Source of the DNA: an uncultured Candidatus Saccharibacteria bacterium
GTDB lineage: Bacteria > Patescibacteriota > Minisyncoccia > Phycocordibacterales > UBA3531
Assembly: GCA_964361405.1 (NCBI GenBank)
Contig: CAYIAA010000004.1
Location: 10,508 to 74,507 of the forward strand
Reading direction: 5' to 3'
DNA length: 64,000 nucleotides
Part shown: positions 29,254-54,427 of the stretch, one piece after another
How positions within the stretch are numbered: the stretch's first letter is position 1
Layout: the number at the start of each line of letters is the position of its first letter
The notes under the pieces: model-generated
What the model was told of the DNA's origin: nothing
Database searches by the model: none
What the model saw: only the letters and a program-made list of their open reading frames with translations
Translations under genes and position numbers: made by a program

Positions 29254-29297
29254 CAGTAACTAGATGGATTCGAACCCGAGGAGATCGTCTCCTCTAT

Positions 29298-29537
29298 CGG
29301 GCACAGGTGTAACGGTAACATGCACGGTTTGGGGTTCCCTTTTGTGTCGGGGCATGGTGTAACGGTAACATGCACGGTTCGGGATCGTGTGACTCCGGGT
29401 TCGAATCCCGGTGCCCCGACACAAAAGGGAACCCAATGTCTGGGGGACATTGGAGGAAGTTTACAGAAATAAACTTGTTTGACTCCGGGTTCCCTGGCCG
29501 ACTGCGTCAGCGGACTAGGCGAATCCCGGTGCCCCGA
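29298..29537 (+). pseudogene. Disrupted tRNA-Pro-like copy. Its 5' fragment (29298-29330) and 3' fragment (29478-29537, with a 28-nt insertion in the T-loop) are separated by the intact tRNA-Pro(CGG) unit. The whole is flanked by a 21/22-nt inverted repeat (29284-29304 / 29529-29550).
   Basis: The 5' fragment shares GGTGTAACGGTAACATGCACGGTT (24/24) with the intact gene, but its acceptor is missing one G. The 3' fragment has CCGGG TT [CCCTGGCCGACTGCGTCAGCGGACTAGG] CGAAT CCCGG TGCCCCG A. Confidence 0.5.
29348..29419 (+). tRNA. tRNA-Pro(CGG), no encoded CCA. The leader and trailer form a perfect 23-bp helix that includes the acceptor stem.
   Basis: Hand-folded: acceptor CGGGGCA/TGCCCCG, D-arm GTGT AACGGTA ACAT, anticodon stem CACGG/TCGTG, loop TTCGGGA (CGG, G37), variable TGACT, T-arm CCGGG TTCGAAT CCCGG, discriminator A. 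Confidence 0.85.
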
Positions 29538-29570
29538 TAGAGGAGACGATTACTAATAGAGAGTTTGAAA

Positions 29571-33289: not shown

Positions 33290-34192
33290 TTGAGAAAAAT
33301 GCTTAAGGTATGGCTTAACGGCAAGATTGTTTCGGAGCAGAGAGCTCGCGTGTCCATTCGCGCACACGCTCTTCACTACGGCACCGGCGTCTTTGAGGGA
33401 ATCCGGTTTTACGATACGGAAAAAGGGAGAGCAATTTTTAGACTTGATGATCACATCAAGCGTCTCCGTTACTCCGCTCGGGCAATCGGGGTGCAAAATA
33501 TTCCAACTTCGGCAACTATACAAAAAGGAATCATAGACATACTCCGTGCGCACACGTACCGCTCTGGGTATATCCGCCCGATTATTTTTTTCGGAGAAAG
33601 TAATCTTGGGCTTTCCACAGAGGGTCTCAAGGCAGATTTTGCCGTTATTGTTTTGCCGTGGAAAAAATATCTTGCGAAGACATCTATTTCACTCAAGACC
33701 GCAGAGACGCGGCGATTTAACCCGCGCGCATTCGACCCGAACGCGAAGATAAGTGGTGTGTACGTAAATTCAATCACGGCGCACCGCGAAGCGGAAAAAG
33801 CTGGGTGCGACGAGGCACTTCTTCTTGGGGACGACGGCTCGGTCGCTGAAGGAGCAGGGGAGAATATTTTTATCATAAAGCGAGGAGTTCTCTATACGCC
33901 GCCCCGGGGGAATATTCTTCCCGGCATTACGCGGAAGACTGTATTTGAAATTGCAAGAAATTTTAAAATCCCCGTGCGGGAAAAACGCCTCCGCCTCGCC
34001 GATCTCTATCGCGCCGACGAATGTTTCCTCACGGGCACTGCCACGGAAGTGACGCCGGTCGGGCGTATTGACGGGAAATTAATCAATCGCGGCCGCGTTG
34101 GGGACAGTACGTCCCGGATCAGTGACAGATTTCAAGAGATTGTGAATGGTCGCGCGCGGAGCTATTGGCACTTACTCACATTCGTCGGGTAG
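33290..34192 (+). CDS. Class IV (branched-chain amino acid / D-amino acid) aminotransferase
   Basis: HYGTGVFEGIRFY. A Lys-containing active-site region. ENIFIIKRGVLYTPP...LPGITRKTVFEIA matches the fold type IV PLP enzymes. Confidence 0.85.
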   Translation: MRKMLKVWLNGKIVSEQRARVSIRAHALHYGTGVFEGIRFYDTEKGRAIFRLDDHIKRLRYSARAIGVQNIPTSATIQKGIIDILRAHTYRSGYIRPIIFFGESNLGLSTEGLKADFAVIVLPWKKYLAKTSISLKTAETRRFNPRAFDPNAKISGVYVNSITAHREAEKAGCDEALLLGDDGSVAEGAGENIFIIKRGVLYTPPRGNILPGITRKTVFEIARNFKIPVREKRLRLADLYRADECFLTGTATEVTPVGRIDGKLINRGRVGDSTSRISDRFQEIVNGRARSYWHLLTFVG

Positions 34193-34929
34193 CGTCGTAT
34201 GAGCGGGTCTTGGGAAGGGAGGCCAAGGCTCGAAATTTGTGCGACTCCCGTCACGCTTCCCCACTTGGAAGCGAAGCTTCCAAGTGGGGACTTTCGCATA
34301 CTGTGGACCCGCGGGGAGTCGGTCATCCCGCCAAGCGGGACGACCCCGCCTCACTCGCCTGTGCTCGTTCCGGCCTGCGACTCCCTGCAAATATACTGCC
34401 TAATTGTGGTCACGAGTCACTAAGTATATTGCTTCGCATTGCTCGCAATCTACGTAAGTGCTCGCGACCCCGGCTCGTGGTTTCGCCTCTCGACGAAACA
34501 TCACTGCGCCTTCCACAAGCTAAAAATTACGAGCAGTCGTAATTTTGCTTACGCTTGTGGACCCGCGGGGAGTCGGTCACATATAATTTTCTGCTGAAAA
34601 TTTATGCGACCCCGCCTCACTCGCCTGTGCTCGTTCCGGCCTGCGATCCCCGCCACGCTTCGCTACAGTATGCAAAAATCCCCACTAAAAAAGCAGGGAC
34701 TTTCGCATACTGTGGACCCGCGGGGAGTCGCACCCCGGATTCGTCCATGCCATGGACGCGTGTTACTGCTATACTACGGGCCCGTTACGGATTACGGATT
34801 CAATTATACACAGATATACACAGAGTTGCGGAAAATGAAAAAAAGAAGGTTCTCTTTCTTAGTATACTCTATAGATATGAACGCCCAAGAGTTTCTGGGG
34901 TGCGCTTTTGTGGTTAGAAGCCCATCTAA
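34193..34929. repeat. Repeat-rich noncoding region containing: a 39-nt direct repeat (34342-34380 = 34608-34646, identical); a second repeat family GGGACTTTCGCATACTGTGGACCCGCGGGGAGTCG (34287-34325, 34695-34729, partial at 34556-34579); and one copy of the dispersed palindrome (34258-34290).
   Basis: Seen directly by string comparison. The overlapping track ORFs here are judged spurious. Confidence 0.7.
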
Positions 34930-37900
34930 GTGACTAAAATAAAAACAGTGTCATTCAAGCACGCACGTTTCTTATTTGTCTTCGCTGTTCTTGTTGGGGG
35001 AGTGCTTTTCCTAGGCTTGGCGTCACCGAGGACCAGTTTTGCCGCCGCTTGCCAGTCTGCCGCTCCCGGCGGCGCCAACTGGTCAAATGCAGGTGCGTGG
35101 ACGAACTGTGGTGGGACTACCCCGGGTGCCGCTGATACCGTTCAAATCTTGAACGGCGATGTCGTGGCTCTAGACACTAATGCTACTACTACCTCCATTA
35201 CCATCGACAATGGAGGCCTTTTGTACGAAGATGGGGCTCGCGTCTTGGTTGTTTCCGGTGGCTGGACTAATAACGGAACGTTTACGAGTGGCACCGGTTT
35301 GGTGAAATTTACTGGCACTCAAACGATTACTGGCACGACAACTTTCAACGGTCTTGAATTCGCCCCTACCTCTGCCGCCACCTTCACCATCGCCTCCGGC
35401 ACTTTTGCCACGACAACAGGGACCCTAACCATCAGTGGTAGTAACAACGTCACCCTCAATACCGGCAACCTTAATGCTCAAGGCAATATTATGGTTACTA
35501 ACAGTGGCACTGGGGGCGGTGGCACGGCAACCATTACGATCAACGGAACAGGAAGTCAGACCTTGACCGGACCCTCAACACTTGGTCAGGGAATATTACC
35601 CAACCTTACCTACAACAAAACTTCAGGCTCATTTTCCGCGACCGGCAACATTACCGTGAGCGATTTTAGGATTAACGCTGGCACGTTTACCTCGACATCC
35701 GGCACGCTGGAAGTGCAAGGCTCGACCCTCAACATGAGTGGCGGCACGTTTACGCATAACGGCGGCACCGTGAGGATTAAATATTCAATGACCCTCACCG
35801 GCTCGCAGACATTCAACAATTTAGAGCTCATACCGACAGGCGGGCGCACGCTCACCATCGCCTCTGGCACCTTCGCCACGACAACCGGAACCCTGACGTA
35901 CGGTACGTACAGCAACTCTTCCGCCGACAGAATGACCATCAATACCGGCAACATTGACGCGCAGGGCGATATCACGGTTACCAATGTCAGCACTATTTTA
36001 GGCGGCGGCACGGCGACCATTACGATCAACGGCACGGGAGCGCAGGTTTTCACCGGGCCGGCGACGCTCAACGCCAACCCCCTTGCGCGTCTCCCGAAAA
36101 TTACCATAGACAAGCCATCGGGCACACTCACCTTGGCCGGCTTTATCACGGTCGCCGGCAACTGGACGTATGTCCGCGGTACCGTGGACGCGACCACCAA
36201 CGATTCAACCGTCGTCACCATAGCCAACATTACCTTCGACGGCCAGGGGACTTCCGCGACCATGGCATTTGACAACATACGGGTACATGCTGGCACGGTT
36301 ACCTTGGGCGGCAATCTCGACATGGACGGTAACTTGACAATAATTTCTAGCAGATTTCTCGTTGCCGCAGACTTCAGCGTCAATGTCGCCGGCGACTGGA
36401 GCAATAGCGGCACCTACACATCAGGAACCAACACAACCACTTTCGACGGCAGTGGCACCTCTACTATCACCACCGGCGGAACGGGTACGGGCAATGATTT
36501 CCAGGATTTCACCGTCGACAAGTCTGGCGGCGCAACTGCGCAACTTCTGGGACCCCTGGACGTGGACGGCACCCTCACGATTACGGCCGGCACTTTGGAC
36601 TTGAATACCCAGAACCTCTCCACCGTCACCACCTGTGATAATTCCGCCACCTTCAAACTTGCCGGTGATGAAACTATTTCATGTACACCAACCAATAATG
36701 CCGGCTCCACGGTGGAATATACCGCTACGACGACCACCAGAAACATCAAAGATTGGACATATCATCACCTCACGGTGAATGGTAGTGGTGGCACATTCAC
36801 CTCCGGCGCTGACGAAACCATTGGTGGTAATCTCACTGTTTCTGCTGGGACCTTGGACACCTCCACCGGCTCCCGTACGTTTACTGTCAATAACACCCTG
36901 ACGGTAAACGGTGGCACACTCACAGCGACGAATGGCACCTTAAATGCCAACCGCGATGTATCTCTTACCTCCGGGACGCTCACGGCACCCTCGGGCGTCT
37001 TCACCGTCTTAGGCAACTGGGTCCAATCAGGCGGCACTTTCACGCACTCATCGGGCACGGTCACGTTTGCGAGCACTTCTGTCCAGACTTTGAACTCCGG
37101 CGGCTCCACCTTTAATGCTATTTCTCACAATGCCGGCGGCACGCTCCGCTTTTCCACGAATCCTCTCTACGCGTCCTCGACCGTCACCAATTCTGACGGC
37201 ACTTTTGACGCGAATGACCTCGCCGTCCTTGCTGACGGATTGGTTACGGTGAGTGGGGGAGAATACCAGTCAAAAACTGCTTCGAGCACTTTTAGTGGCG
37301 GTTTAACCGTCTCCGGCGGCACGTTCACTGGCTCGACTGGCGGGGTAGAGGTGAATGGTAATCTGGCTTTATCCTCCGGAACGCTCACGGCACCCTCGGG
37401 CCCTTTCCTTGTCTCCGGCTCCTGGTCACAAACGGGTGGCACATTTACTCCCGGTACCGGTACGGTGAGGTTTGATGGAACTGCGGCGGGTAATACGATT
37501 AACACTGGTGGCACATCTTTTTATCAATTGACGGTGAACGGTTCGGGCGGTGCCTGGACACTCGCCACTTCTAACGCCACTACCACTGCCACTACAACCG
37601 TCACCGCCGGCACCTTGACCGTGCCGGCAACTCTCACCCTCAGCACTGCCTCAACTACTATCAACGGGGGAACGCTTACCGCAACCTCTGGCACTTTGGA
37701 TATAAATGGCAACCTCACTCTTTCCTCGGGAACGCTCACCGCGCCGTCGGGGACAATGACGCTCTCCGGAAATTTTACTAACTCGGGCGGCACGTTCACT
37801 CACAGCTCTGGTACCTTTACCTTGGACGGTGCCGACCAGACTCTTTCCGGCGCTACTATCTTTGGGAATCTCACTAAGACTGTCACCAGTGCTCGCATAC

Positions 37901-43925: not shown

Positions 43926-43979
43926 TATCAAGGGCCGCCCTTGATAATTAAGGACACTTGGAAGCTTCGCTTCCAAGTG
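43926..43979. repeat. Two adjacent hairpins: ATCAAGGG-CCG-CCCTTGAT (43926-43944), and a copy of the dispersed palindrome CACTTGGAAGC-TTC-GCTTCCAAGTG (43955-43979)
   Basis: Seen directly. Located immediately downstream of the hicA-like stop. Confidence 0.7.
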
Positions 43980-44064
43980 CGAAAAAGATAAGTTCTCGTG
44001 GCGAGAGTTGTACCCTTATGGAAATTAGTGATATACTTGCCCCATACTAGTTATTCACTAAAAT

Positions 44065-51397: not shown

Positions 51398-52515
51398 CAA
51401 TGTCAAGGGGAACCCTTGACAATAGTATGCGGCACAGCAAGGTTATAGTTGCCATGTCTGGCGGCGTGGATAGTTCCGTTTCCGCGGCGCTTCTTCACCG
51501 CGCGGGCTATGACGTTACCGGCGTTTTTATCCGCGTATGGTATCCGCCCGGGATTTATTGCTCGGCGGAAGACGACCGGCGTGATGCGCTCCGTGTGGCG
51601 GCTAAAATTGGTATTCCGCTTCTCACGGTCAATTTGGAAAAAGAGTACAAAACTGCGGTGATAGATTCGATGTTTCGTGAGTATACGCGCGGACGGACGC
51701 CCAACCCCGATATTCTCTGCAATGAAAAAGTAAAATTTGGAGCATTTCGTACGTGGGCGCGAAAGCGTGGAGTTGATGCAATCGCAACGGGTCACTATGC
51801 CCGGATTGTGAAACAAGACGGAACACTCCACCTCCGTGCCGGAAAAGATAAAGAAAAAGACCAAAGTTATTTTCTGTATCGCCTCGGAAATCGGGCACTC
51901 GCGCGGATTATTTTTCCTGTGGGAGCCATGGAGAAGAGTGAAGTACGGGCACTCGCGCGGCGATTTGGTCTCCCCACTGCGGAGAAGAAAGATAGCCAAG
52001 GGCTTTGCTTCGTGGGGAAATTTGATTTCAAGGAATTTTTGAAACACTATGTGCCAGTGAAATCCGGTACCGTGCTCGATACGAAAGGCAAAATCATCGG
52101 GCACCACGATGGAGCTCTTCTCTATACCATCGGCGAGCGGCATGGATTTAATGTGACAAAAAAAAGCCCGCACGATCCGCCGTACTACGTTGTTGGGCGT
52201 GACGTAAAAAAGAATACGCTTACTGTCGCTCGGGGAAATGAAGAAAAGAGATTTTTCAAACGAAAAATAATCCTCTCTCATCCCCACTGGGTTTCTGGAA
52301 AACCGCCCGCACTCTCGGGAACATACCGCGCCCGTATTCGCTACCGCCAACCGCTTCAATCCTGCCGATTAGTAAAACAACCCCCACTTGGAAGCGAAGC
52401 TTCCAAGTGGGGGTATATGGTTGTTTTTGATCGCCCCCAGAGAGCTGTCACGCCCGGGCAATCACTGGTTCTTTACCGCGGAATAGAGTGTCTCGGTGGA
52501 GGAGTGATTACATAG
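51391..52515 (+). CDS. mnmA: tRNA-specific 2-thiouridylase MnmA. It carries an in-frame 33-nt palindromic element near the C-terminus.
   Basis: PP-loop AMSGGVDSS, catalytic cysteines (DILCNEK; GLCFVG), C-terminal AVTPGQSLVLYRGIECLGGGVI. Confidence 0.9.
   Translation: MLTMSRGTLDNSMRHSKVIVAMSGGVDSSVSAALLHRAGYDVTGVFIRVWYPPGIYCSAEDDRRDALRVAAKIGIPLLTVNLEKEYKTAVIDSMFREYTRGRTPNPDILCNEKVKFGAFRTWARKRGVDAIATGHYARIVKQDGTLHLRAGKDKEKDQSYFLYRLGNRALARIIFPVGAMEKSEVRALARRFGLPTAEKKDSQGLCFVGKFDFKEFLKHYVPVKSGTVLDTKGKIIGHHDGALLYTIGERHGFNVTKKSPHDPPYYVVGRDVKKNTLTVARGNEEKRFFKRKIILSHPHWVSGKPPALSGTYRARIRYRQPLQSCRLVKQPPLGSEASKWGYMVVFDRPQRAVTPGQSLVLYRGIECLGGGVIT
52381..52413. repeat. Palindromic element CCCCCACTTGGAAGC-GAA-GCTTCCAAGTGGGGG (15-bp stem) inside the mnmA coding sequence. 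It encodes PPLGSEASKWG in-frame.
   Basis: Seen directly. The same core is at 34258-34290 and, in the opposite loop orientation, at 43955-43979. Confidence 0.8.
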
Positions 52516-52540: not shown

Positions 52541-54427
52541 ATGCAATCAGACGAAATCCGTAAGCGATTCCTCGCTTTTTTTGAGAAACGCGGACATACA
52601 GTCATTCCTTCCGCTTCTCTCGTTCCTGAAAACGACCCTTCTGTCCTCTTTACGACAGCTGGAATGCAGCCCCTCGTGCCCTACCTCCTGGGACAGCCAC
52701 ATCCGGCCGGGAAACGCCTAGTAAACGTCCAAAAATGTGTTCGGACGCAGGATATAGATGAAGTCGGGGACAAGACCCACGATACTTTCTTCGAGATGCT
52801 CGGGAATTGGTCGCTTGGGGACTATTTTAAAAAAGAGGCTATTACGTGGAGCTATGAATTCCTGACATCAAAAGAAGAAGGACTTGGACTCGATCCAAAG
52901 CGCCTCTATATTACGTGTTTCGAAGGTGATGCTGACGCGCTGAGTGGCTCGCCCGTAGCATCGCCCGTAGGGCTATGCCCGAGGGACGAAGAATCGGCAA
53001 CAATTTGGAAATCACTCGGCATCCCGGAGAATCGAATTTATTTTCTTGGGAAAGACAGTAATTGGTGGAGCCCGGGTCCTAGTGGCCCTTGTGGGCCAGA
53101 CACCGAGATGTTTTACGACATCACCGGCAATTTGAATCTTTCATCCAAGGAAGAATTTCTCAAAGCGGATAAAGAGCAAAAGGTGGTTGAGATTTGGAAC
53201 GATGTATTTATGGAGTATGAGAAAAAAGACGGTAAAGTAATCGGTAAACTTTCGCAGAAAAACGTGGATACCGGAGCCGGACTCGAACGCCTCGCGATGG
53301 TGACGCAAGGAAAAGACACTATTTTTGAGACGGATTTATTTTCATATCTTATTAAAAAAGCAAAGAAGTTTTCAAGAGATTCTAAAAAACAAAGAATTAT
53401 TGTGGACCATCTTCGCACCACAGCTTTTATGATTACCGATGGTGTGAAGCCTTCAAATACCGATCGAGGATATATTTTGCGTCGCCTTTTGCGAAGGGCT
53501 ATTTTTAACACTGATCAAAAAGTATTCTCAAAAGAAGATATCCAAGAGGTTATAACTTCTGTCGTAGAAAAATATGGAATTATTTATAAAAATTTAAGGG
53601 ATCAAAAAAATGAGACTATAGAAATAATTTTAGAGGAGCAGAAAAAGTTTAGTCAAACACTCAAACCGGCTACTCATGAGTTACTGGACTATTTGCAAGA
53701 TTTATATAATAGCCGCAAATCGGTATTTGAGAAAAATCCATTTGATCGTTGTGTCACAGCTGAAAGATTTTTCTACTTTAATACAAGTAGGGGTATACCC
53801 AACGACTTAATATGGGCAATGATAGAGGATTGTGGACTTTCTCAATTTCAAGAAGAAGGTTTCGAAGAAAAATTAAGATTATTGTTTGATAAACATAAAG
53901 ATATCTCCCGGGCAGGTGCTGAAAAGAAATTTAAAGGCGGACTTGCTGATGAAAGTCCCGAGACGATCCGCCTTCATACCGCCACCCATCTCCTTCATGC
54001 CGCACTTCGAAAAGTTCTTGGCGATCACGTATATCAGAAGGGGAGTAATATCACGCCGGAGCGTTTACGTTTTGATTTTTCTCACCCCGCAAAAATGACG
54101 ACCGATGAAATTAATCGCGTTGAAAAAATCGTAAATGATTCAATCACGATGAGTTATGAAATGCGCCGTGAGGTGCTCACTGTCGATGAGGCAAAAAACC
54201 GCGGCGCCATCGGACTCTTTGATGACAAGTATGCTAAAATTGGTGGAAAAGTTTCAGTCTATAGCACAGTTGATCCGACGAGCGGAAAGGTATATTCAAG
54301 CGAGATATGTGGAGGACCACATGTCGGGTATACACATGAGCTTGGTCATTTTAGAGTTTTAAAAGAGGAGGCGGTGGCGGCTGGCATCCGACGGATTAAG
54401 GCAACACTTAGCCCCTTACCTTCTTGA
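52541..54427 (+). CDS. alaS: Alanine--tRNA ligase, short form (catalytic + tRNA-recognition + editing domains; no C-Ala/DHHA1 tail)
   Basis: N-terminal FFEKRGHTVIPSASLVP...FTTAGM. Editing-domain HxxxH (HTATHLLHAAL) and CGGPHV. Confidence 0.9.
   Translation: MQSDEIRKRFLAFFEKRGHTVIPSASLVPENDPSVLFTTAGMQPLVPYLLGQPHPAGKRLVNVQKCVRTQDIDEVGDKTHDTFFEMLGNWSLGDYFKKEAITWSYEFLTSKEEGLGLDPKRLYITCFEGDADALSGSPVASPVGLCPRDEESATIWKSLGIPENRIYFLGKDSNWWSPGPSGPCGPDTEMFYDITGNLNLSSKEEFLKADKEQKVVEIWNDVFMEYEKKDGKVIGKLSQKNVDTGAGLERLAMVTQGKDTIFETDLFSYLIKKAKKFSRDSKKQRIIVDHLRTTAFMITDGVKPSNTDRGYILRRLLRRAIFNTDQKVFSKEDIQEVITSVVEKYGIIYKNLRDQKNETIEIILEEQKKFSQTLKPATHELLDYLQDLYNSRKSVFEKNPFDRCVTAERFFYFNTSRGIPNDLIWAMIEDCGLSQFQEEGFEEKLRLLFDKHKDISRAGAEKKFKGGLADESPETIRLHTATHLLHAALRKVLGDHVYQKGSNITPERLRFDFSHPAKMTTDEINRVEKIVNDSITMSYEMRREVLTVDEAKNRGAIGLFDDKYAKIGGKVSVYSTVDPTSGKVYSSEICGGPHVGYTHELGHFRVLKEEAVAAGIRRIKATLSPLPS

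Follow-up and report, generated by a model that had tools for sequence, protein, structure and literature searches.

Displaced fragments of tRNA genes reportedly mark integrated genomic islands, an observation credited to Reiter in 1989 and Williams in 2002. Dispersed palindromes are known as REP/BIME sequences in enterobacteria and as the palindromic elements of Rickettsia, and the Rickettsia type inserts in-frame in genes. When genomic islands are mapped with Islander, the signature is an intact tRNA gene plus a cognate 3′ fragment in the same orientation (PMC4383910). Sites in the T-stem region constitute one of the two main integration classes, and tandem arrays occur (PMC4383910).

Here we describe a locus that shares features with each of these systems. 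It lies in a 64,000-nucleotide stretch of DNA, hereafter the window, which is part of a 195-kb contig from a metagenome of 0.1-µm-filtered Hainich groundwater. The gene content noted includes DUF5671, DUF5674, peptidoglycan enzymes and ribosomal operons. This content and the nearest tRNA match, in a Nomurabacteria metagenome-assembled genome, jointly indicate a member of the Patescibacteria (CPR).

An overlooked tRNA gene in the repeat-dense region

The region of interest is bounded by two protein-coding genes and includes a tRNA gene with its upstream spacer.

33299-34192, plus strand: class IV aminotransferase gene, adjoining the array side of the region
34712-34783 (read from 34783 to 34712), minus strand: tRNA-Ala(GGC) gene (ARAGORN; Rfam tRNA, 47.7 bits, E = 4e-9)
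34784-34929: AT-rich divergent spacer from the tRNA gene to the surface-protein gene, delimited by reading the sequence
34930 or 34948 (start), plus strand: surface-protein gene encoding 1515-1521 aa, on the other side of the region

A sequence-only reading of this DNA had described the interval between the two protein-coding genes as noncoding and as having no convincing open reading frame (ORF). The latter claim agrees with our results. None of five tested ORFs from the repeat region matched Pfam (ORFs of 43-125 aa are listed there), the gene caller of the public contig called no genes in the repeat region, and nothing scored when a six-frame translation of the region was compared with the protein collection. 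The description as noncoding has to be abandoned, since both ARAGORN and Rfam identify a tRNA-Ala(GGC) gene on the minus strand. Its Rfam score compares with a gathering score of 29 for the tRNA family, and the default Rfam filters missed it in the gathering run on the whole window. The local annotation is thus corrected to include an overlooked tRNA gene with an atypical T-loop.

This tRNA carries the G3:U70 acceptor pair that serves as the alanine identity pair, and CCA is not encoded by the gene. Its T-loop, UGCGACU, is atypical in having G at position 55, which is normally U55. The gene is 97% identical to the tRNA-Ala(GGC) gene of a Nomurabacteria metagenome-assembled genome (L013), and the T-loop is the same in both. 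The tRNA gene reads toward the aminotransferase gene, such that the two genes are convergent. On its other side, the spacer includes TATAAT on the minus strand about 21 nt upstream of the tRNA 5′ end, which is a putative promoter for the tRNA. The same spacer contains the short tandem repeats TTACGGA (2.5 copies) and TATACACAGA (2 copies).

Two repeat families in one composite module

The repeats that were first reported are largely as described. An identical 39-mer is present at exactly 34342-34380 and 34608-34646, where shuffled sequences are expected to yield none, and it extends to a 45-nt repeat with 96% identity. For the second family, a 35-mer, the copy at 34287 is present as stated, the other full copy begins at 34696 rather than 34695, and the partial third copy at 34556 corresponds to a 24-nt core. 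This core of 20-24 nt, TGTGGACCCGCGGGGAGTCG(GTCA), occurs three times, at 34302, 34556 and 34711 (again with none expected from shuffles). Shorter repeats are GCGACTCCC, at 34241 and 34377, and GGGAGTCG, at 34314, 34568 and 34723. The sequence-only reading had also argued that these repeats do not form a CRISPR array, and we likewise rejected this candidate. Such an array needs repeats of equal length, regular spacing and unique spacers of similar length, whereas the spacing here is irregular (155, 254 and 266 nt) and two kinds of repeat form one composite.

The two families are parts of a single composite module that is anchored on tRNA-Ala. Reverse-complemented, the final 20 nt of tRNA-Ala give the core of the “35-mer” family, and two of the three copies in this family also include 15-21 nt of the trailer. 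The “39-mer” is located directly upstream of both extra copies of the tRNA 3′ end. The shared 20-mer CGACTCCCCGCGGGTCCACA, as read on the minus strand, extends from C56 of the T-loop through discriminator A73 and then CA. All three copies are in the orientation of the tRNA, and every one begins at C56. The parts of the array are as follows, all on the minus strand.

34711-34730: 20-mer CGACTCCCCGCGGGTCCACA, copy 1, inside/at the end of the tRNA gene
34665-34713: trailer hairpin 1 (inverted repeat I3; minimum-free-energy fold)
34556-34651: unit X_B, 96 nt (repeat search, core identity and fold)
34614-34640: GA-rich hairpin P2 of X_B
34575-34611: variable hairpin P3 of X_B
34556-34575: tRNA 3′-end copy 2, in X_B
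34512-34561: trailer hairpin 2, 9 + 10 bp (minimum-free-energy fold)
34404-34499: degenerate unit X_C (repeat family D4; fold)
34302-34385: unit X_A, 84 nt (repeat search, core identity and fold)
34341-34375: 35-nt core of X_A, identical to the core of X_B
34321-34345: hairpin P3 of X_A
34302-34321: tRNA 3′-end copy 3, in X_A
34240-34252: truncated start of a further unit, antisense T-arm copy GACGGGAGTCGCA, at the array end
34730 to 34576: repeat 1 of the head-to-tail module
34575 to 34322: repeat 2 of the head-to-tail module, which includes X_C
34321 to 34240: repeat 3 of the head-to-tail module, truncated after the antisense T-arm copy

Trailer hairpin 1, whose 5′ arm begins at the tRNA discriminator, comprises 18 bp, of which two are G-U on the minus strand, and a 12-nt loop. 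Trailer hairpin 2 is its positional homolog with a diverged sequence. Unit X_B opens with GGGGATCGCA, an antisense copy of the T arm, and continues through the 35-nt core that carries P2, hairpin P3, and TGAC joined to tRNA 3′-end copy 2. The order in X_A is the same, in that the 35-nt core, P3, and TGAC with tRNA 3′-end copy 3 come after its antisense T-arm copy. That copy, GGGAGTCGCA, exactly complements tRNA positions 54-63. The core provides the GA-rich internal loops of P2 and terminates in CGGGGTCG. Hairpin P3 is variable in sequence and conserved at its base (GGUCG/UGACC), and the next tRNA 3′-end copy comes after it. In both X_A and X_B, a T-arm-like sequence (CGGGG-U...CGACU-CCCCG) is therefore split by P3. 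Unit X_C has a P2-like hairpin (34480-34499) and lacks the tRNA 3′-end block. Its GGGGTCG and TGACC are separated by a 52-nt insert, and together they form a 62-nt P3 stem-loop at 34408-34469. The array ends at 34240, which is 48 nt from the aminotransferase stop codon.

Repeats 1 and 3 are homologous through their trailer and antisense T-arm segments, to about 100 nt past the tRNA end, and repeat 2 aligns at its start. When X_A and X_B are compared, the 35-nt core and the 24-nt block formed by TGAC and the tRNA end are 100% identical, the adjacent trailers are roughly 60-90% identical, and the hairpin between the identical blocks is unrelated. Within about 82 kb of the contig, the 35-nt core occurs at this locus only, and the 18.5 kb searched beyond the window added neither copies nor tRNAs.

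On either strand, the predicted fold of the region is much more stable than those of shuffled sequences (z = -12.3 for minus and -10.2 for plus). The minus strand has the lower energy (-277 versus -248 kcal/mol), and the G-U pairs of the hairpins work only on that strand. Units X_A and X_B adopt a common fold of three helices (z = -3.1 and -3.8), wherein the minimum-free-energy structure has a helix P1 (GGGAGUCG:CGACUCCC) that encloses P2 and P3. A search of the minus strand inside the array for promoter or terminator consensus sequences found none. Inverted repeats I1 and I2, of 20-22 nt, flank segments of about 330-360 bp, and their sequences can be explained as sense and antisense copies of the T arm.

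Related populations and public collections

Homologs of the aminotransferase with 82-86% identity were found in three other populations. Their contigs all end 66-167 nt past the aminotransferase stop codon, inside or just beyond a tRNA-3′-like block that is of the unit type (…GTGTGACC-GACTCCCCGCGGGTCCACA) and is not the tRNA itself. At the equivalent position in L005, the block of TGAC and the 20-mer is identical at 24 of 24 nucleotides. This block is also kept in L006 and L020, with the addition of a 19-nt hairpin-forming insertion. For comparison, synonymous sites in the adjacent aminotransferase gene are only about 62% identical. The 35-nt core is absent from L005, which has no P2 at all, and only the ends of the core are kept in L006 and L020. 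In L020, the closing stem and GGA/GA internal loop of P2 are kept, the distal helix is replaced and an extra 35 nt are present. L005 and L006 have one P3 hairpin in common and diverge beyond it. Overall, the aminotransferase side of the block is homologous in the relatives, whereas the opposite side differs and looks mosaic. When the far side of the array was sought through homologs of the surface protein, the contigs were either unrelated or too short.

An independent assembly of the same population (k=31) is identical in the two flanks, up to 34285 on one side and 34741 on the other. Exactly the array is left unbridged, and the assembly holds no copy-number information. The array breaks short-read assemblies at this spot in every relative sampled.

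Matches to the 20-mer among GTDB genomes were only tRNA-Ala(GGC) genes, chance matches and one unrelated tRNA-like minigene. The tRNA-Ala(GGC) genes of Nomurabacteria and Wildermuthbacteria have ordinary flanks without units of the kind described here. A scan of JGI metagenomes returned a single contig, which is identical to the L006 type. In IMG/VR, 18-mer matches proved to be tmRNA or tRNA-Ala genes, and a 22-nt probe from the 35-nt core had no match there. GenBank phages likewise gave no match.

Dispersed palindromes and a parallel tRNA-Pro locus

The region was said to include one copy of a palindrome that is dispersed in the window, and this copy was recovered along with two others.

34259-34289: dispersed palindrome, 31 nt, at the loop position of trailer hairpin 3
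43952-43982: further copy in the window
52380 or 52382 to 52412: further copy in the window

The copy in the array sits where repeat 1 has only a 12-nt loop. The palindrome is found in three settings, namely the loop of another hairpin, an intergenic position behind a gene, and an in-frame site in mnmA. The mnmA copy adds about 8 residues at a β-hairpin, and these residues are not found in MnmA homologs of solved structure. The palindrome at 34259-34289 thus has the attributes of a dispersed element, with three copies in the window and with sites lacking it in paralogous or homologous sequence. It is the only array hairpin that belongs to the dispersed family.

A second tRNA locus in the window (29262-29560) carries an intact tRNA-Pro(CGG) gene enclosed by fragments of another gene that resembles tRNA-Pro(UGG). 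The 3′ fragment equals the intact gene except for a 27-nt hairpin inserted in the T-loop at the position equivalent to that of P3. Because the two fragments joined in silico give only a poor tRNA, with mismatches in the acceptor and anticodon stems, the outer gene is a pseudogene. This locus resembles the alanine locus in having partial isoacceptor copies by an intact gene and a hairpin at the same T-loop position. The two differ in that the proline locus has 5′ and 3′ fragments that enclose the gene, with perfect inverted repeats of 14-17 bp, whereas only 3′ fragments are reiterated at the alanine locus. The tRNA-Pro locus and the mnmA palindrome together show that tRNA fragments accumulate in this genome and that palindromic hairpins enter it as DNA insertions, in many cases at the tip of a hairpin already present. 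In this streamlined genome of a groundwater member of the Patescibacteria, tRNA loci collect both tRNA fragments and hairpin insertions.

Units compared with known RNA classes

With ARAGORN and Rfam, tRNA-Ala is the sole call, and neither X_A nor X_B is called a tRNA or a tmRNA. Both gathering and permissive Rfam scans of the window, the region and the related loci returned tRNA and no other family. Removing P3 in silico, with 40 junction variants and relaxed thresholds, still gave no tRNA or tmRNA call. Just 27 nt lie between what would be the acceptor and T stems of X_A and X_B, and the candidate 5′ acceptor strands (GGGAUCG and GGGAGUCG) cannot pair with CGGGUCC unless a mismatch or a bulge is allowed. 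Enforcing a tRNA-like fold on the units costs 6-12 kcal/mol relative to the minimum-free-energy fold. We therefore rejected X_A and X_B as tRNAs, including intron-bearing forms, given that no cloverleaf is called either in the native units or after hairpin removal. The literature provided nothing relevant on T-loop introns or tRNA-like RNAs in these bacteria.

Origin of the array

Our preferred explanation, which we hold tentatively and at slightly short of an even chance, is that a module built on a tRNA 3′ fragment was reiterated locally and was later remodeled by palindrome insertions. On this view, the units are pseudo-tRNA modules that originated in the DNA through recombination at the T arm of tRNA-Ala. 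A tRNA 3′ fragment would have arisen beside the tRNA-Ala gene, and the module would then have reached about 3.5 copies by unequal or illegitimate recombination between T-arm-derived repeats. Hairpins, including the dispersed palindrome of 31-33 nt, would have been inserted or expanded later at the apexes of existing palindromes. If transcribed, the array would be the 3′ trailer of the tRNA, with its hairpins serving as a terminator or a processing barrier between the convergent genes. We infer the order of these events, as well as transcription and the absence of a dedicated function.

Reiteration is favored over independent integrations because the homology between repeats spans the whole module and not an att-like core alone. 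Likewise, one degenerate unit and one truncated unit are to be expected for decaying copies. The confinement of the core to this locus and its lack of conservation in relatives also speak for this explanation, as do the absence of tRNA or tmRNA calls for the units, the similar pattern at the tRNA-Pro locus and the insertions of the dispersed palindrome. Other findings weigh against a scar. The identical blocks of X_A and X_B amid diverged trailers need gene conversion plus a hairpin swap, or else selection. Furthermore, the perfect retention of the 3′ block in L005 despite the divergence of the adjacent gene, the minus-strand G-U pairs with the better predicted fold of that strand, and the retention of the P2 stem and loop in L020 would each be compatible with a functional RNA. 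Even so, the array is most likely a recombination scar and not a regulator of the surface-protein gene.

A functional RNA is the foremost alternative, although we consider it unlikely. In this case, X_A and X_B would yield a lineage-specific small RNA derived from tRNA, either as genes or as segments processed out of the tRNA-Ala precursor. The sequence-only reading had listed an sRNA locus among its candidate roles, and such a locus could lie on the minus strand. Similarly unlikely is the specific architecture that such an RNA would have, with a closing helix P1, a K-turn-like and GA-rich P2, an expandable P3 and a 3′ tail identical to that of tRNA-Ala. The tail could recruit factors that process or bind tRNAs. 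This proposal gains from the fact that the core is identical in two copies with diverged surroundings, that both copies fold alike into three helices, and that the G-U pairs are specific to the minus strand. The base of P3 and the 3′ block are also conserved in relatives against a synonymous divergence of about 38%, and in L020 the distal helix of P2 is swapped whereas its closing stem and internal loop are retained. However, the units are known from only two or three lineages, none of which has a full-length homolog, and L005 is without P2. There is no match to an Rfam family, one copy is degenerate and another truncated, and no minus-strand promoter or terminator consensus was found inside the array. 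The identical blocks, the conserved 3′ block, the strand-specific G-U pairs and the preserved P2 loop of L020 are each explicable in neutral terms as well, whether by conversion from the adjacent functional tRNA gene, which could account for conservation of the 20-mer, by a recent conversion with one hairpin swap, or by palindromes that are self-complementary from the outset. In addition, insertion of a DNA palindrome yields the same replacement of one hairpin by another.

Rather unlikely, in our view, is a history of successive integrations into the T-loop region of tRNA-Ala(GGC), in which the copies are displaced tRNA 3′ fragments (scars of the attL/attR type). It would further require, with no greater probability, that the integrated elements have since been deleted to 135-234 bp or that they were non-autonomous mini-elements. 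This is the closest known phenomenon, and it explains why the boundary falls in the T-loop and why the “island side” varies among relatives. The Islander signature is present, in that an intact tRNA-Ala(GGC) gene shares its strand with cognate 3′ fragments, the 20-mer copies at 34556 and 34302. In accord with it, the fragments begin in the T-loop, and relatives are homologous on the aminotransferase side and different or mosaic on the other. Nevertheless, the model fails three tests, which concern an integrase, island-sized DNA and unexpected flank homology. No integrase occurs in the intervals or within ±10 kb (Pfam list), and searches of the window and the related loci for XerD-type recombinases and smpB were negative, including tblastn of the 64-kb window for XerD-like sequences. 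The intervals of 135 and 234 bp are far below the size of an island. For about 100 nt, the DNA that follows the last fragment shows homology to the DNA that follows the tRNA, whereas simple integration predicts none. Moreover, a hairpin interrupts the T-arm-like core of the units where the crossover region should be, and neither IMG/VR nor GenBank phages contained an attP-like match. The suggestion of “decayed mobile-element ends” made in the sequence-only reading comes close to this surviving explanation. Taken as a whole, the interpretation offered in that reading is supported in part.

More doubtful is a broader possibility, namely that the units are a new structured RNA of Patescibacteria that is derived from tRNA and maintained by selection, for instance as a decoy or scaffold for proteins that process or bind tRNAs, or that they are miniature, non-autonomous elements that move through the T-loop of tRNA-Ala. 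In the former case, the RNA would be a mimic of the Ala-type T arm and acceptor 3′ strand, with an expandable T-loop hairpin and a K-turn-like GA hairpin, and it would originate from the tRNA-Ala precursor.

The two weakest explanations are both very improbable. A regulatory or phase-variable (invertible) element that controls the 1521-aa surface protein, as the sequence-only reading had proposed, might be suggested by the inverted repeats I1 and I2 and by the position upstream of the giant gene. This proposal finds no support because a divergently oriented tRNA gene separates the repeats from the surface-protein gene, the repeats point in the opposite direction and no recombinase is nearby. 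Furthermore, the probable promoter spacer is outside the array, the inverted repeats are accounted for by sense and antisense T-arm copies, and the independent assembly agrees in both flanks, its sole failing being that it does not span the repeats. A tmRNA gene in remnant or unusual form, whether one-piece or permuted, has just as little prospect. The 18-mer CGACTCCCCGCGGGTCCA is the 3′ end of three phage-borne tmRNAs, and the Rfam model tmRNA_permuted gives a weak alignment in which CGGGUCC pairs with a downstream GGGAUCG (16 bits, E = 0.44), but this score lies well under the gathering score of 47, ARAGORN detects no tmRNA, no plausible tag frame with a hydrophobic/Ala ending was seen when reading the sequence, the candidate 5′ acceptor strands carry a purine-G mismatch or a bulge, and smpB was not found in the window. 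The alignment reflects only the common Ala-type T-arm and acceptor sequence.

Each of the main readings has its own consequence. If the units are expressed, they would represent a new class of tRNA-derived RNA. If they are mobile, they would be unusually small elements that target T-loops. If they are neither, then the array is a dissected example of a recombination scar that should not be mistaken for a regulatory region.

Comparison with known systems

The units share with the tRNA-like domain of tmRNA and with mascRNA a T-stem-like pairing and an Ala-type acceptor 3′ strand with U70, which here is identical to that of the neighboring tRNA. Unlike these RNAs, the units lack a convincing 7-bp acceptor stem and have an interrupted T-loop. 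Their tRNA-like fold is disfavored, and they are called neither by covariance models nor by ARAGORN.

The dispersed palindrome resembles REP/BIME sequences and the Rickettsia palindromic elements in being a perfect palindrome of 31-33 nt that is present in three copies in 64 kb. It is much shorter than the Rickettsia elements, and no transposase of the RAYT type or any other type was seen.

The likeness to islands marked by displaced fragments is the most extensive. In both cases, direct copies of a tRNA 3′ end follow the intact gene in the same orientation, the copies start in the T-loop or T stem, and there can be more than one fragment. The array differs from such islands in lacking an integrase and island-sized DNA, in having about 100 nt of extra homology and in having a core that is split by a hairpin. 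It is a variant of the known class of tRNA-fragment scars, both real and unusual.

tRNA-Pro and tRNA-Ala genes in the window

A 5' and a 3' fragment, both from a tRNA-Pro(UGG)-like pseudogene, enclose an intact tRNA-Pro(CGG) gene, and the 3' fragment carries a 27-nt hairpin as an insertion in its T-loop.

Features of the nested tRNA-Pro locus (window positions)
29262-29560, plus strand: entire locus
29298-29333, plus strand: 5' fragment of the tRNA-Pro(UGG)-like pseudogene
29348-29420, plus strand: intact inner tRNA-Pro(CGG) gene
29480-29537, plus strand: 3' fragment of the pseudogene
29493-29519: T-loop hairpin insertion

Perfect inverted repeats of 14-17 bp adjoin the acceptor ends in the inner tRNA-Pro gene and in the outer one alike, and folding of the whole region (29262-29560) gives z = -7.8. 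The locus may have long stems for processing, or it may be a tRNA gene that has taken up a tRNA cassette.

Three tRNA-Ala isoacceptor genes (UGC, CGC, and GGC) lie within the 64-kb window, as does a short alanyl-tRNA synthetase gene. U is near-universal at T-loop position 55 of tRNAs. The GGC isoacceptor instead has G55 (UGCGACU), both in the window and in a Nomurabacteria MAG (L013). This tRNA scores just 47.7 bits with Rfam and was missed by the gathering run on the whole window.

tRNA-Ala(GGC) and alanyl-tRNA synthetase genes
Window 34712-34783, minus strand: tRNA-Ala(GGC) with G55
L013:5949-6020: tRNA-Ala(GGC) with G55
Window 52541-54427, plus strand: alanyl-tRNA synthetase (628 aa), directly 3' of mnmA

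Immediately upstream of the tRNA-Ala(GGC) gene, the divergent spacer holds short tandem repeats (TTACGGA, 2.5 copies, and TATACACAGA, 2 copies; window 34784-34826). Inside the giant surface-protein gene, diverged direct repeats of several families recur with periods of ~470-490 nt (window 35379-37800, plus strand). They would fit a protein of repetitive beta-helix or adhesin-like type. The sole hint from Pfam for this gene is a match to CarboxypepD_reg, and it is weak.

An Ala-type tRNA-like minigene in other MAGs

An Ala-type tRNA-like minigene of 67-70 nt, which has a promoter-like sequence of its own, occurs in six MAGs (Falkowbacteria, 'Patescibacteria group', and others).

Minigene loci
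L010:5622-5900
L011:2370-2570
L014:6530-6800
L016:2545-2810
L017 around 1537, minus strand
L018 around 3122, minus strand

The acceptor (GGGCCCG...CGGGTCCA) includes G3:U70 and the T-arm is normal, the D stem is absent, and an odd arm replaces the anticodon arm. After the minigene comes a second promoter-like sequence (TTGAC-N17-TATAAT), then a ~70-nt small RNA ending in a terminator, whose 5' part is complementary to the odd arm over 12-19 nt and covaries with it between loci. Neither RNA was called by ARAGORN or Rfam, and smpB was not found near these loci. A split tmRNA-like system is one possible reading of the two; a tRNA-like RNA paired with an antisense RNA is another.

Hairpin insertions and a dispersed palindrome

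In a relative (contigs L006 and L020), the tRNA-3'-like block (L006:3447-3602 / L020:1-145) is interrupted between CGACTCCCC and GCGGGTCCA by a 19-nt insertion, GCCCCAGGCGGGCAGGCCC. The inserted stretch folds into a small GC hairpin by itself, a further case of a hairpin placed into palindromic sequence.

Dispersed copies of a perfect 31-33-nt palindrome, CCCC(C)ACTTGGAAGC-GAA-GCTTCCAAGTGGGG(G), occur in the window.

Palindrome copies (window positions)
34259-34289
43952-43982
52380-52412

One copy lies in frame within the MnmA gene, where it codes for PPLGSEASKWG and makes the protein ~8 residues longer than in solved MnmA structures. The palindrome resembles a miniature mobile palindromic element and recalls the Rickettsia palindromic elements.
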